IMG/VR virus record: IMGVR_UViG_2636415959_000001
Coordinates: 1-33,961 of that record
DNA from: a virus
Lineage: Duplodnaviria > Heunggongvirae > Uroviricota > Caudoviricetes
Direction: 5' to 3' (one strand)
DNA length: 33,961 nucleotides
The notes below the pieces were generated by a model that ran no database searches, was not told the origin of the DNA, and saw nothing but the letters and a program-made list of their open reading frames with translations. Shown here one piece after another: positions 1 through 33,961 of the stretch. Made by a program: the position numbers and the translations under genes. How positions within the stretch are numbered: the stretch's first letter is position 1; the number at the start of each line of letters is the position of its first letter.

Positions 1-1314
1 TTAACTTACTGATTTTAATAATCCTCTACTGCTAGTTTGTGGTCTATGGGGCATCAATGGGGCAAAATCACCCAGCTTCTGATTCAGCATTGCGATCTGC
101 TCTGCGTTATTGTCTGCCATCCATGCGCCGTACACATTGAAAACCATTTGCGCACTAGCGTGCCCCATCTGACTGGCTATAAAGCTTGGATTGGCGCCAG
201 CGGCCAGTGACCAGCACGCGTAAGTGTGGCGCGACTGGTAAGCTTTTCGATGCCTGATCCCCGCCTTTTTTAACCCTGCGTCCCACGAGTCACCAAACGA
301 ATCAACCTTGTAGATAACCCCCACATCCTTACTTCGACGGACTATCTTAGGGTTAAAGACAAATGTACAGCTGTGCTGCGTTGTTCGACCATATTCACGC
401 AATTGCACGTTGATGTGATACTGCTGCCCGAGTCTAGTCATTTCCATCTGATTCCTTAACGCATCGATGGCTGGCTGAATGAGGTGTATCACTCTATCCG
501 TACTGGCGTCCGTTTTCGGTAGTGTGAACTCGCCCAGTTTTGTATAATTACGGCGAATTGTTATTGTACCCGCTTCAAGGTCTATATCTTCCCATGCCAG
601 GGAAACCAGTTCTCCGTGACGAACACCTGTGTACACCGCCAGTGACCACATGTTTTTCGTCTGCTGATGCCGGCACGCATCTATCAGACGGATGAATTCA
701 TCACGGCTGAGCGGATCTGGCTCCACCCTGGCCCTTTTTAATGGCTTTATTCCATCAAAGGGATTTGCCTTTATGTACCCATTATCGGCGGCGAACTGGA
801 ACATTCCGGCGATAGTCGTCATGTAGTAATTGACGGTGACCGCGCTCCGGCCCTTAACAGGGATCCTGCCCTTTGCCGCGCACTGATAACCCATCAAAAG
901 CTCTTTCCTGATGTACAGCAACTCTTCTTTCTCAATCGCTGTCACCAGTCGGGTAGCCCCGATCAGCGGTACAACAACTGCCACGACCGACTCGTACCGT
1001 TTGTGCGCGTTCGCGCTGATTTCCATCTTTTTCAGATCCAGCCACTTCTCTTCGAGTTCTTTCACTGTGATTTCTTTCTTGCCCAACCCAAAAATTTTAA
1101 GGTTAGGTGAATCTGGAAACCGTTCAGCATAATCAAAGCTTCCCGTGCGGATGGCAAAGCATACCGACACCCGCAGTTCCCCGGCGATCTTCCTGTTCTT
1201 AGCGGTGTCAGGGACACCGAGGTTTTCCCTGACGCGCTTACCTTTAAAATTAAACCAGATGCGCAGACTGCCACCGTGGTTTTCGACGCCTGTTGGATAT
1301 GTGATTTTATCCAT
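1..1314 (-). CDS. int: Tyrosine-type site-specific integrase (phage integrase)
   Basis: 437-aa ORF; C-terminal catalytic region with conserved R (..TGVRHGELVSL..), H-x-x-R (..RHTYACW..) and terminal Tyr region (..VFNVYGAWM..); N-terminal arm-binding-like domain; stop codon at window position 1-3. Confidence 0.9.
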   Translation of the reverse strand: MDKITYPTGVENHGGSLRIWFNFKGKRVRENLGVPDTAKNRKIAGELRVSVCFAIRTGSFDYAERFPDSPNLKIFGLGKKEITVKELEEKWLDLKKMEISANAHKRYESVVAVVVPLIGATRLVTAIEKEELLYIRKELLMGYQCAAKGRIPVKGRSAVTVNYYMTTIAGMFQFAADNGYIKANPFDGIKPLKRARVEPDPLSRDEFIRLIDACRHQQTKNMWSLAVYTGVRHGELVSLAWEDIDLEAGTITIRRNYTKLGEFTLPKTDASTDRVIHLIQPAIDALRNQMEMTRLGQQYHINVQLREYGRTTQHSCTFVFNPKIVRRSKDVGVIYKVDSFGDSWDAGLKKAGIRHRKAYQSRHTYACWSLAAGANPSFIASQMGHASAQMVFNVYGAWMADNNAEQIAMLNQKLGDFAPLMPHRPQTSSRGLLKSVS

Positions 1315-7514: not shown

Positions 7515-8434
7515 GCAGCAAACTACAGGGCTATGTCTGGGATGCCTGCGCTGTTTCTGGTGTCAAGGGGACGCGGCTAATGGTTATGGTACGCCTGGCT
7601 GATTATTCCAGTGATGATGGGAAAAGCTATCCTGGCATAAAAACCATTGCCCGCCAACTTGGCGCGGGGGAGAGCACCATACGAACAGCCATTGCTGAAC
7701 TTGAATCAGAGAAATGGCTTCGACGTGAGAATCGCCGGAATGGTAACCGCAATACATCAAATATGTACTTTTTGAATGTCGAAAAACTTGAAGAAATTGC
7801 ACTTCGGGAGAGATCTGCTATTCGTCTGGATCGACGCAAAAACAACCATTTTGACCCGTCAGATTCTGACGTATCGGATTCTGACAAGTCAGATTTTGAC
7901 GCGTCAGAAATGAGTGACTCAAGTGCACTTGACCCGTCAGATTCTGGCAAAAACAACCATTTTGACCCGTCAGATTCTGGGGGACATGATCCACAAGGTT
8001 TAAAACATGATCCACAAGTAAAAGATCATGAACCACAAGAAGTGCGCGCAAAGCGCCAGAAAAAATCTTCTTTCGACCCTGCATGGCTAAAACCTGAAAA
8101 CGTCAGCGCTGAAATCTGGCTGGACTGGATTAAATTTCGCCGGGAGAAGCGTCAACCGCTGACGGAAACAACCTGCGCATACCAGGCTAAGCAGCTTGCA
8201 GGCCATCAGAATGCCGATGAAGTGATCCGACGCTCAATTGCTGGAGGCTGGCAGGGATTGTTCCCGGATCGTGTGCCCAACAAGCCCGCAATGTCACTAG
8301 CTGAAAACGAAACGCTGACCGCAAGTCAACCGCCAGCTGGGTCATGGTGCACACCATCTGGAGATGGAACAGCGGAGGTATTTATCAACCAGGCCGCTAT
8401 CGAGCGCATGAAGCGCGGGAGTTATCGCCCATGA
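7511..8434 (+). CDS. Replication initiation protein (lambda O-like role) with internal iteron-encoded repeats
   Basis: 307 aa from ATG 7511; N-terminal winged-helix-like region; central low-complexity KNNHFDPSDSD repeats encoded by DNA iterons; conserved C-terminal region. Confidence 0.65.
   Translation: MSSKLQGYVWDACAVSGVKGTRLMVMVRLADYSSDDGKSYPGIKTIARQLGAGESTIRTAIAELESEKWLRRENRRNGNRNTSNMYFLNVEKLEEIALRERSAIRLDRRKNNHFDPSDSDVSDSDKSDFDASEMSDSSALDPSDSGKNNHFDPSDSGGHDPQGLKHDPQVKDHEPQEVRAKRQKKSSFDPAWLKPENVSAEIWLDWIKFRREKRQPLTETTCAYQAKQLAGHQNADEVIRRSIAGGWQGLFPDRVPNKPAMSLAENETLTASQPPAGSWCTPSGDGTAEVFINQAAIERMKRGSYRP
7836..8040. repeat. Iteron array (putative replication origin) inside the replication initiator gene
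   Basis: 33-bp direct repeat GCAAAAACAACCATTTTGACCCGTCAGATTCTG at 7836-7868 and 7947-7979; further ~15-bp GTCAGATTCTGAC-like units; CATGATCCACAAG repeats at 7985-8040. Confidence 0.65.
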
Positions 8435-31024: not shown

Positions 31025-31825
31025 ATGCATCGTATAGACACGAAAACCGCGCAGAAGGATAAGTTCGGCGCGGGTAAGAACGGTTTTACCCGTGGTAATC
31101 CCCAGACTGGTACGCCTGCCACCGATCTGGATGATGACTACTTTGACATGTTGCAGGAGGAGCTTTGCAGCGTTGTGGAGGCATCCGGTGCCAGCCTGGA
31201 GAAGGGGCGGCATGACCAGTTGCTTACCGCACTTCGCGCACTGCTGTTAAGCCGCAATAATCCGTTTGGTGATATCAAATCGGACGGCACTGTGCAAACG
31301 GCTCTCGAAAACCTTGGTTTGGGAGAAGGTTCAGCATTACCGGTTGGTGTGCCTGTTCCGTGGCCTTCAGCTACACCACCGACAGGCTGGTTGAAATGCA
31401 ATGGTGCAGCTTTTTCTGCTGAAGAATACCCGGAACTGGCAAAGGCTTACCCGACAAATAAATTGCCTGATTTACGCGGTGAGTTTATTCGTGGCTGGGA
31501 TGATGGACGCGGTGTGGATACGGGGAGGGCAATATTATCATCTCAGGGCGATGCCATACGTAATATCTATGGTGAGTTCAAGACTGTAAACGCCGAAAAT
31601 TATTCAATATGGGAATCAGTAGACTCTTTTAAGGGGGCAGTGGTGCCTTTGAACCCCTCAACGGACAATAGTTATTTCTCCATAATCAATAGTATGTTGA
31701 CACAAAGAACAGATGGCTCTGTTTACCCAACAGTGATTGGCCTTGATGCTTCAAGAATTGTTCCAACTGCAAACGAAAACCGTCCACGAAATATTGCATT
31801 TAACTTTATCGTGAGGGCTGCATAA
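31025..31825 (+). CDS. Tail fibre protein with tail-collar domain
   Basis: 266 aa; ..[49 protein letters not shown].. fits the phage tail-collar motif; C-terminal part AT-rich. Confidence 0.75.
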
Positions 31826-32427: not shown

Positions 32428-32818
32428 GCCATTCAATATCGAGTGCTGTTGAAGTATTAATACGCATCAATAGCACTCGATATTCTTTCCATGCCAGTAA
32501 CAGTTTCGTTTCATCATCTGTTGCCATACCTAAATCAACCGCATCCTGAAGCGGAGCTATTACATTCGTTGCCTCTGCTATCAGTGCAGATTTCTTTTCA
32601 TCATTTATTAAGGCTAATTGTTCTGGTGTTGGAGAAGGACGGTCAACAATGACAGGATGACCGTTCTCACCACAGGTAATCATTTTTGTTACACTCTGTG
32701 CATTAATCAGTGTTTTCCACTCTGATTCCGAGATTTCCACTGCATCATCAGGAATATTGGTGCCGTGAAATTCAGTCGAATAAAATCCGTTTGTCGATGC
32801 AGAATAAAAATATGACAT
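32399..32818 (-). CDS. Tail fibre assembly protein, second copy in inverted orientation
   Basis: 139 aa from ATG 32818 (MSYFYSASTNGFYSTEF.., a typical Tfa N-terminus); convergent with the plus-strand Tfa. Confidence 0.65.
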   Translation of the reverse strand: MSYFYSASTNGFYSTEFHGTNIPDDAVEISESEWKTLINAQSVTKMITCGENGHPVIVDRPSPTPEQLALINDEKKSALIAEATNVIAPLQDAVDLGMATDDETKLLLAWKEYRVLLMRINTSTALDIEWPTPPAVQAR

Positions 32819-32822
32819 TTCG

Positions 32823-33221
32823 TTAATATCCCATTGCAATGTAATACGCATCAGCAGATGAACCATATCCTGAACCGGGCGACACTGTAATATTAAATCC
32901 AGTGTTCTGGACATTTGTCGCCGATACAGTCGGCTGCCCTGACGCGCCAGTAACGTTCAATGTAACTGTGACAGCAAGGACTCTTGAGAATGTCATCGGG
33001 AACCTTATCTCGTATGTTGAAGAAACATTCGGGGAGCCATTCAACTGACCGCACTGTAAAATTAAACCAGACGGAAATTTTTGCGCAGCAGCCGTTGCGG
33101 TATTACTTGACGCGAACAGGCTCATATCAGGTATCTGATTCGCCCCTGTACCTACATTCCTTTTAGCTGCTTCTCCCAAACCAACGTTTACGAAAATAAA
33201 AATCCGCCACAGCGTAATCAA
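32823..33221 (-). other. Inverted tail-fibre C-terminal (receptor-binding-like) coding segment lacking its own N-terminal part
   Basis: Minus-strand ORF ending 4 nt before the inverted Tfa; track start is a non-ATG codon inside the dinI terminator; first in-frame ATG at 33125 has no clear RBS. Confidence 0.45.
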
Positions 33222-33240
33222 AACGTAACAGTGGCGGATA
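33191..33240 (-). terminator. Intrinsic terminator downstream of the dinI-like gene
   Basis: ATCCGCCAC / GTGGCGGAT stem (33202-33210 / 33231-33239), large loop, followed on the minus strand by TTTTTATTTT. Confidence 0.5.
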
Positions 33241-33250
33241 TTGAAAAACT

Positions 33251-33493
33251 TTACTCACTCACTAACCAAAATTCAGCCTCTTCAAACATTTCCTGGACTA
33301 CTGCACTGATCCGTTCCTTCTCGTGCTTGCTGGCGTCAGTGTTGATCGCCGGTAGTGTCATCATCGGTTTAACCCGAACATCAGCGTCAGGGAAAATCCG
33401 GTGAACCCTCTTGGTCAATTCGCCCAGAATGATATCTTTTGCACCGGGAAGACCATCAAAATTCCTTTTGTCATAAACGAGTTCCACGAACAT
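33251..33493 (-). CDS. dinI: DinI-family protein
   Basis: 80 aa; ..FPDADVRV.. and acidic C-terminus ..EEAEFWLVSE parallel E. coli DinI (..DDWFVSE) as recalled; LexA box in its promoter. Confidence 0.8.
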   Translation of the reverse strand: MFVELVYDKRNFDGLPGAKDIILGELTKRVHRIFPDADVRVKPMMTLPAINTDASKHEKERISAVVQEMFEEAEFWLVSE

Positions 33494-33508
33494 TGCTCAT
33501 TGCCTCTT

Positions 33509-33528
33509 TGCTGGATGGATATACAGTA
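33509..33528. promoter_or_regulatory. LexA (SOS) box in the divergent dinI-like / umuD'-like promoter region
   Basis: Minus-strand reading TACTGTATATCCATCCAGCA (CTGT-N8-CCAG), very close to the E. coli dinI box as I recall it; lies between -35 TTGCTG and -10 TATACT (plus strand) and directly downstream of -10 TATAAA (minus strand). Confidence 0.6.
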
Positions 33529-33571
33529 TTTATACTGTGTTTTTATCCGGTATTCAAGAGAGGGCGTAAAC

Positions 33572-33961
33572 ATGGGCTTTCCTTCACCTGCTGCAGATTA
33601 TGTTGAAACACGAATCTCCCTCGATCAGCAGTTAATCAGCCAGCCCGCAGCGACTTATTTCATGCGTGCATCGCGTTCACATTTCAGGGAAGGGATAATT
33701 CAGGGGGCGCTGCTTGTTGTTGATGCCTCACTTTCAGCCTGTGATGGCTCGCTGCTGATCTGCGCGATAGACGGAGAATTTAGGATCAAGCGATATCGGA
33801 CACATCCTCAACCCCACCTCGTTAATCTGGAGAACGGGAGAAAGGAGGCGCTGCCAGTAGATGATGGCGGTTACAGTTCTGCACCCGCTGTATTTGGGGT
33901 GCTTACTTACATCATCAATGACGCCAGGAATGCAGAGTTTGATGATTGCCCGGTGATGTGA
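33572..33961 (+). CDS. UmuD'-like protein (S24-family fold, N-terminally pre-truncated, catalytic Ser not conserved)
   Basis: 129 aa from ATG 33572 (RBS GAGAGGG); starts MGFPSPAADYVE.., aligning to E. coli UmuD from Gly25 (..CGFPSPAADYVEQ..); GDSM position reads RSHF; Lys of ..EFRIKR.. retained; stop is the last codon of the window. Confidence 0.75.
   Translation: MGFPSPAADYVETRISLDQQLISQPAATYFMRASRSHFREGIIQGALLVVDASLSACDGSLLICAIDGEFRIKRYRTHPQPHLVNLENGRKEALPVDDGGYSSAPAVFGVLTYIINDARNAEFDDCPVM

Follow-up and report, generated by a model that had tools for sequence, protein, structure and literature searches.

A probable HumD-family protein, encoded in UmuD' size and register, at the end of a prophage

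Closest described systems

Escherichia coli makes UmuD' by RecA-stimulated self-cleavage of UmuD at Cys24-Gly25. The gene described here, which is predicted to be translated directly in the shorter form, closes a 33,961-nt sequence of a Caudoviricetes virus (IMG/VR record IMGVR_UViG_2636415959_000001, positions 1 – 33,961), the whole of which is called the window below. A close relative is HumD of phage P1 (AAQ14073.1), named in the title of its description as a functional homologue of UmuD' and credited there with facilitating SOS mutagenesis (McLenigan et al. 1999, J Bacteriol 181:7005, cited in PMC4713147). The P1 and window proteins are both 129 amino acids long, begin with Met-Gly-Phe-Pro-Ser-Pro at the position of UmuD Gly25, share a one-residue deletion ahead of a Gly-Ile pair and end in the tail EFDDCPV(M/I); both genes have a LexA box (a putative one in the window) some 20 nt ahead of the ATG and are without a umuC partner. 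The surroundings differ, since P1 humD is carried by a plasmid prophage and is divergent from lxr, followed by phd-doc, whereas in the window the gene closes an integrated prophage, one that has a contractile tail and a Mu-like baseplate, and diverges from a dinI-like gene. The LexA box equivalent to that of P1 is degenerate in the window, where a second box is found upstream, and the motif A-D-S-H of P1 HumD is replaced by S-R-S-H.

E. coli UmuD/UmuD' (PDB 1umu, 1ay9 and 8gmt), the accessory subunit of DNA polymerase V (Pol V), has the same fold as the window protein, the same GFPSPAADYVE segment and a Lys in the Lys97 column. The window protein, however, has neither the 24-residue N-terminal arm nor the Cys/Ala-Gly cleavage site, does not retain an intact G-D-S-M motif, is one residue shorter near the nucleophile, carries 10 extra C-terminal residues and is not part of a umuC operon. 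Salmonella phage vB_SosS_Oslo (gp31-gp32) is similar to the window in that an UmuD homologue follows the tail-fibre genes of a temperate phage, but this protein possesses the N-terminal arm, the Cys-Gly site, G-D-S-M and the Lys, its gene is adjacent to a UmuC gene, and the acidic tail is missing. With the LexA repressor, the window protein has in common the S24 peptidase C-terminal domain, while the DNA-binding domain is present only in LexA.

The gene and its family

nt 33572 – 33961, plus strand: humD-type gene (open reading frame and translation), 129 codons followed by a TGA stop

According to the open reading frame (ORF) list and its translation, the ATG at nt 33572 opens a frame that encodes a 129-residue protein, and the TGA stop (nt 33959 – 33961) forms the last bases of the window. 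The frame remains open upstream as far as a GTG at nt 33401, and an ORF beginning there would overlap the opposite-strand dinI-like gene (nt 33251 – 33493). The 129-residue product matches Pfam Peptidase_S24 (PF00717) and opens with the residue pair Met-Gly, having no cleavable N-terminal arm. It matches the NCBIfam equivalog model NF051876 ("HumD family translesion DNA polymerase") from end to end, residues 1 – 129 of the protein on positions 1 – 129 of 129, with 219.6 bits (cutoff 120; E = 9e-66). Identity to the HumD proteins of phages P1 and P7 is 72% over all 129 residues, and the homologues of D6, N15 (gp26), phiKO2 (Gp23) and HK639 share 64–71% of residues with it (64–67% for N15 gp26 and the HK639 'UmuD'), compared with 42% for E. 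coli UmuD. A length of 129 residues is also found in 71 of the 120 close homologues listed.

Structural comparisons point in the same direction. The best match among PDB sequences is UmuD' (1umu; E = 7e-23 by phmmer, 4.9e-27 with a HumD-family profile), and residues 2–116 align with residues 25–136 of the 139-residue UmuD chain 8gmt_B, placing Gly2 opposite Gly25. The MAFFT alignment with UmuD likewise sets Met1-Gly2 against Cys24-Gly25, after which the common GFPSPAADYVE segment follows. A first AlphaFold run, built on 100 close homologues, gave a mean predicted local distance difference test (pLDDT) score of 48.5 and was discarded; the model used here, from a more diverse alignment, has a mean pLDDT of 73.2 and 80–86 in the core. 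With Foldseek its top fold matches are UmuD and UmuD' (8gmt, 1umu), at template-modelling scores of 0.75–0.77, followed by LexA C-terminal domains. The model for UmuD as the autoproteolytic Pol V subunit (NF007621) gives 89.5 bits, below its 110-bit cutoff, and the LexA model TIGR00498 gives 32.2 bits against a cutoff of 110.95. The label 'LexA family transcriptional regulator', which the protein bears in some database records, was rejected on this ground, and because the protein consists of the S24 domain without an N-terminal winged-helix DNA-binding domain.

The gene thus very probably belongs to the HumD family, as an orphan UmuD homologue that is carried by phages and translated in the size and register of UmuD'. 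The original prediction that the ORF begins at the equivalent of UmuD Gly25 and yields a pre-truncated, UmuD'-like protein is borne out by the alignments and by NF051876; it did name P1 HumD as an alignment partner, but did not recognise the protein itself as a HumD. Neither the kind of protein nor this sequence is new, and the finding is a rediscovery: P1 HumD is the prototype, a curated family exists, and the exact sequence is already public on 150 contigs (328 index blocks) under names that include 'HumD family translesion DNA polymerase'. At 90% identity the window protein falls in a cluster of 1430 members. A megablast search of the locus against the phage collection gave no match, the relationship to P1 being visible at the protein level only.

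The gene is under strong purifying selection, the ratio of nonsynonymous to synonymous substitution rates (dN/dS) being 0.04–0.05 relative to E. coli prophage copies and 0.13 relative to P1. The coding sequence differs from the prophage copy of E. coli Nissle 1917 at 40 of 387 nt, 33 of these differences being synonymous (dS 0.48, dN/dS 0.05).

Position of the start codon

nt 33572 – 33574, plus strand: ATG, predicted true start codon; Met1-Gly2 corresponds to UmuD Cys24-Gly25
nt 33556 – 33564, plus strand: Shine-Dalgarno-like sequence AAGAGAGGG, read from the sequence, ending 7 nt before the ATG at nt 33572
nt 33515 – 33517, plus strand: upstream in-frame ATG used in some calls by the Prokaryotic Genome Annotation Pipeline (PGAP; 148 residues), judged not to be the start

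The RefSeq/PGAP product is 129 residues long in some genomes and 148 in others, E. coli Nissle among the latter; in two of the compared loci the site equivalent to nt 33515 is position 8314 (L001) and position 8313 (L002). Alignment of the upstream DNA of eleven loci favours the shorter product. Among unrelated carriers (the prophage group of the window, a second prophage group, P1, N15 and HK639), similarity starts at the LexA box and the DNA further upstream is unrelated, while the order LexA box, purine-rich block, ATG GGN TTY CC is kept in register in all homologues aligned. The purine-rich block reads AAGGAG or GAGGTG at the matching place in homologues. In four loci (L006, L007, L010 and L011) the identical 129-residue protein is preceded by unrelated DNA with an in-frame TGA 19 codons upstream. 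Corresponding in-frame stops are found 5 codons upstream in P1 (TGA), 9 codons upstream in N15 (TAA) and 19–20 codons upstream in other contexts. The ATG at nt 33515, by comparison, lies within a LexA-like box (box 1, described below), the start of the divergent dinI-like gene being just 21 nt away, and no purine-rich block precedes it. The 148-residue start is disfavoured because of this location, the missing ribosome-binding block, and the occurrence of the identical protein elsewhere behind an upstream stop.

The residue before the conserved Gly gives a similar picture. In 48 cleavable long forms (selected as described below) it is Ala in 35 and Cys in 8, and never Met, whereas it is Met in all 31 short forms. 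From these sequence comparisons the ATG at nt 33572 is taken as the real start and the upstream extension as unused, in agreement with the original view that the extension was unlikely to be translated. In one Citrobacter freundii homologue, 98% identical to the window protein (P0001), the Met1 codon reads Thr (TGFPSPAA) and the protein has been called from the ATG further upstream; either a mutated start codon or decay into a pseudogene may account for this.

Catalytic residues

nt 33677 – 33682, plus strand: codons of Ser36-His37, candidates for the position of UmuD Ser60 (alignments split 4:3)
nt 33788 – 33790, plus strand: codon of Lys73, aligned with UmuD Lys97 in every alignment

The segment that includes the nucleophile reads A-S-R-S-H-F-R-E-G-I in the window protein and A-S-G-D-S-M-I-D-G-G-I in UmuD. 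In HumD-type proteins the stretch from the strand ATYF(M/V)(R/K)A to the Gly-Ile after the nucleophile lacks one residue relative to UmuD, and the choice between Ser36 and His37 therefore depends on the placing of a gap: if it is set before the motif, Ser36 falls on Ser60 and His37 on Met61, and if after the motif, His37 falls on Ser60. Seven alignment procedures were compared for the position of this one-residue gap. Four put Ser36 at Ser60, namely MAFFT, a HumD-family profile against the UmuD' PDB sequences, summed profile column scores (15.6 versus 12.6–12.8), and hmmalign to a hidden Markov model of the cleavable long forms only. The remaining three, single-sequence phmmer, hhalign of short against long profiles, and the HumD profile against LexA, put His37 there. 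Ser36 is the likelier equivalent of Ser60, as only this alignment preserves the canonical spacing to Gly-Ile (S+5 = G and S+6 = I in UmuD and LexA) and retains the Gly at -2 in N15 (G-A-T-H) and HK639 (G-S-T-Y). Assignment of secondary structure with DSSP on the AlphaFold model shows residue 37 as an isolated bridge, a hint only, which does not decide the choice.

Among 120 close homologues, 90 have Ser and 27 have Thr at position 36, while at position 37 there are 111 with His and 8 with Tyr. Lys73 is Lys in 119 of 121, although HK639 has Met at this position. The original prediction had the catalytic Ser replaced by His and the Lys retained. The retained Lys is found in every alignment, but the loss of the Ser is insecure in view of the 4:3 split and the prevalence of Ser at position 36; the G-x-S-M context is nevertheless gone, both the Gly and the Met being replaced in S-R-S-H. 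A Ser aligned with the catalytic position, which had been named beforehand as evidence against this prediction, is what most of the procedures (four of seven) give.

For a wider comparison, a profile search of 1.84 billion cluster representatives was made, which returned 4455 relatives at E ≤ 0.001. Those usable among the top 150 comprised 48 long forms and 31 forms that start directly at 'MG-FPSPA', here called born-short; in several short metagenome representatives the C-terminus looks garbled, probably through frameshifts or errors in the reads, so that counts for the short forms are rough.

Ser60 column: Ser in 43 of 48 long forms; in the 31 born-short forms Ser 5, Thr 10, Ala 6, the remainder scattered
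Lys97 column: Lys in 43 of 48 long forms; in the 31 born-short forms Lys 12, Arg 9, Cys 4, and others

The homologues of Hafnia phage yong1 (46% identity) and Aeromonas phage pAEv1818 (43%) have neither the Ser nor the Lys. Constraint on the Ser/Lys dyad thus looks relaxed in the born-short class, in which no cleavage is needed, and the chemistry of self-cleavage looks dispensable there. The earlier proposal that the window protein needs no self-cleavage to adopt the UmuD' form holds for the class as a whole, where the dyad columns vary, yet in this particular protein Lys73 and the adjacent Ser36 are still present.

An acidic C-terminal tail

nt 33935 – 33958, plus strand: acidic tail EFDDCPVM (residues 122–129), a HumD-clade-specific extension past the UmuD C-terminus

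Proteins of the HumD clade run 10 residues past the end of UmuD. Within this extension, conservation in close homologues reaches at least 90% at each of E122, F123, D124, D125, P127 and V128, and the tail is kept in the Hafnia and Aeromonas phage proteins that are without the Ser/Lys dyad. It occurs in 8 of the 31 born-short representatives and in none of 63 long ones. Relatives show the variants EFDDTPF, EFHDNLPF and EWDDLPVI. The tip of the tail is probably disordered, as pLDDT falls below 50 at residues 124–129, which is usual for a flexible tail. Considered together, these traits suggest that the HumD clade may have lost the arm, relaxed the Ser/Lys dyad and gained an acidic tip.

The tail resembles the C-terminal tip of SSB (single-stranded DNA-binding protein), MDFDDDIPF, and the variants EFDDTPF and EFHDNLPF are closer still. 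The SSB tip recruits many repair proteins (PMC10018359, PMC5872125). It is conceivable, if rather doubtful, that the HumD tail mimics the SSB tip or acts as some other docking peptide, and would so direct the phage Pol V subunit to SSB-interacting replication and repair proteins, or compete for them. No description of the tail was found in the papers searched, and a search for phage mimics of the SSB tip gave nothing relevant to HumD.

Control region and the dinI-like neighbour

nt 33494 – 33571, no strand: control region of 78 nt between the divergent dinI-like and humD genes, containing both LexA-like boxes
nt 33509 – 33528, no strand: putative LexA-like box 1, TGCTGGATGGATATACAGTA (CTG-N10-CAG), 16 of 20 consensus matches, adjoining the dinI-like start codon
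nt 33533 – 33552, no strand: putative LexA-like box 2, TACTGTGTTTTTATCCGGTA, 15 of 20 consensus matches, left half-site intact, right CAG changed to CGG
nt 33251 – 33493, minus strand: dinI-like gene, 80 residues (Pfam DinI, 1.7e-18; PHROG 189 'RecA filament binding protein DinI', 3.6e-20)

When every 20-mer of the window was scored against the LexA consensus TACTGTATATATATACAGTA, boxes 1 and 2 were the two best, the next best having 13 matches. Box 2 aligns column for column with the annotated LexA site of P1 (AF234172, 87545 – 87564), and also with the perfect CTGT-N8-ACAG boxes of N15, HK639 and the second prophage group (L006, L007 and L011). Control of the dinI-like/humD region by LexA is a prediction well supported by the position of these putative boxes and by homology to the P1 site. 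The original suggestion of LexA-type control over an UmuD'-like protein without an arm finds support here as a trait of the HumD family.

The 78-nt spacer shows no differences (0 of 78) from the E. coli Nissle 1917 prophage copy, despite the divergence of the humD coding sequence at synonymous sites noted above. Constraint on the spacer thus appears to be far stronger than at those sites, which fits overlapping promoters and operators and not a coding extension, where synonymous changes would be expected. The product of the dinI-like gene scores 43 bits against the E. coli DinI equivalog model, below its cutoff of 111. A scan of nt 33200 – 33700 for terminators found no sites. A 20-nt inverted repeat (85% complementary) joins nt 33327 – 33346, in the dinI-like gene, with nt 33911 – 33930, near the humD 3' end; this imperfect repeat is probably due to chance and was set aside.

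Prophage context

The window is a whole prophage, with an integrase gene (nt 1 – 1314, minus strand) and genes for primase-helicase, terminase, portal, capsid, tail sheath, Mu-type baseplate and tail fibre. No Y-family polymerase domain was detected among the large ORFs tested in the window, and no IMS-family gene was found within the 6 kb that follow humD, either in six related loci or in the E. coli copies. The gene is an orphan without a umuC partner, as is P1 humD.

In loci L006 – L011 the identical HumD is found beside unrelated tail modules (a tailspike with a GDSL lipase, a GpJ-type tip, or a Mu-type baseplate), with the dinI-like gene either present or not, and it always adjoins the same chromosomal genes (an isochorismatase fragment, an invertase gene, a yciI-like gene and ompW). 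As the same protein accompanies different tail modules at a single chromosomal junction, humD has the appearance of a typical mobile accessory gene at a prophage end. In related loci a 182-residue Resolvase+HTH_7 gene follows humD at a distance of about 1 kb, and the true right end of the prophage may therefore lie outside the window.

Two 24-nt inverted repeats (nt 31305 – 31328 and 33170 – 33193; 92% complementary, with the core AAACC..GGTTT) bracket a segment of about 1.9 kb. This contains the C-terminus of the tail fibre, two convergent genes for tail-fibre assembly and a gp53-like fibre tip in the opposite orientation, a layout of the Gin/Cin/Pin-type invertible host-range segment (putative); the window itself has no invertase gene. 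Between the two assembly genes, in the middle of the putative invertible segment, is an 18-nt hairpin (nt 32435 – 32484, 94% complementary, 14-nt loop), possibly a bidirectional terminator.

Proposed function and alternative explanations

If the gene acts as its family membership suggests, LexA would keep both divergent promoters, that of the dinI-like gene and that of humD, shut in the lysogen, and DNA damage would lift this repression, so that HumD would be made directly in the UmuD' form. HumD would then dimerise like UmuD' and join host UmuC, with RecA-ATP, in a translesion polymerase of the Pol V type, a route that would skip the delay of the slow RecA-dependent cleavage of UmuD. The DinI-like protein would be induced together with HumD. 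E. coli DinI damps RecA-mediated UmuD cleavage, and a DinI-like gene paired with a cleavage-independent UmuD' might, as a conjecture, form a coherent module.

Several points weigh against this scheme. The function of HumD in this prophage is deduced from its 72% identity to P1 HumD, and the window covers the prophage only, any host umuC lying outside the view. P1 HumD reportedly needed a high-copy plasmid to complement well, and its natural role may thus be something other than mutagenesis itself. As to control, box 2 is degenerate (CGG for CAG), and a strict sigma-70 scan of nt 33200 – 33700 found no promoter, the layout of promoters and operators thus being a deduction; candidates picked out by eye, TTGCTG-17-TATACT (plus strand) and TTGAAT-17-TATAAA (minus strand), are weaker, with 8–9 of 12 matches, and are suggestive at most.

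Another possible role for HumD is as a modulator or antagonist of the host SOS response, which might titrate UmuC, form mixed dimers with UmuD or UmuD', or act on RecA filaments together with the DinI-like protein. The divergent pairing with the dinI-like gene under common LexA-like boxes, the lack of an own umuC and the conserved, clade-specific tail, absent from UmuD', would all suit such a role, and P1 HumD is said to be poorly expressed and to complement weakly at low copy number. Against this, P1 HumD was reported as a functional homologue facilitating SOS mutagenesis; a modulating or antagonistic role is considered improbable. Far less credible is the idea that humD is a decaying, 5'-truncated umuDC remnant devoid of function, as might be supposed from its place at the prophage edge beside a chromosomal junction and from the missing umuC. 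It is practically dismissed by the low dN/dS (0.04–0.13), by the 1430-member cluster and the 150 contigs with the exact sequence, by a start codon, ribosome-binding block and LexA box that are conserved across P1, N15, HK639 and other unrelated carriers, and by the existence of a curated family (NF051876).

Two further readings would restore proteolysis to the protein, and both are very unlikely. The first takes the real product to be a conventional UmuD of 148 residues or more, made from the ATG at nt 33515, with a 19-residue arm removed by self-cleavage at Met-Gly. The frame is indeed open up to nt 33401, RefSeq has 148-residue calls in E. coli Nissle and other genomes, and Lys73 and a nearby Ser are kept. 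That start, however, lies in LexA-like box 1, close to the dinI start and without a ribosome-binding block, and stops stand upstream in L006, L007, L010, L011 and P1. The 57-nt extension carries no substitutions relative to the E. coli copy, although the substitution rate of the coding sequence predicts about 5 synonymous changes; Met is not the residue that precedes Gly in cleavable forms (Ala or Cys in 43 of 48); and the NF051876 model starts at the Met encoded at nt 33572. In the second reading, Ser36 (or His37) and Lys73 form a working site that cleaves host UmuD, LexA or a phage repressor in trans. UmuD can cleave intermolecularly, 117 of 120 close homologues have Ser or Thr at position 36, and Lys73 is all but invariant among such homologues. 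The Ser is nevertheless replaced by Thr in 27 of these 120 and the Lys by Met in HK639, homologues at 43–46% identity have neither residue, both columns are far more variable in the born-short class than in cleavable forms (5 of 31 with Ser and 12 of 31 with Lys; in cleavable forms 43 of 48 in either column), and the G-x-S-M motif is not intact. The interpretation as an orphan HumD, translated in the UmuD' register, is therefore preferred.

Significance

As a discovery this carries little weight, HumD having been known since 1999, with a curated family of its own and the exact sequence deposited under the HumD name. For annotation, the PGAP calls of 148 residues should be corrected to 129, and the name 'LexA family transcriptional regulator' is wrong for such a product. 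Of wider interest, the born-short UmuD homologues would provide a natural illustration that Ser60 and Lys97 are needed for processing only and not for UmuD' function, and the acidic tail offers an inexpensive, testable lead on how phage HumD may plug into the replication and repair machinery of its host.

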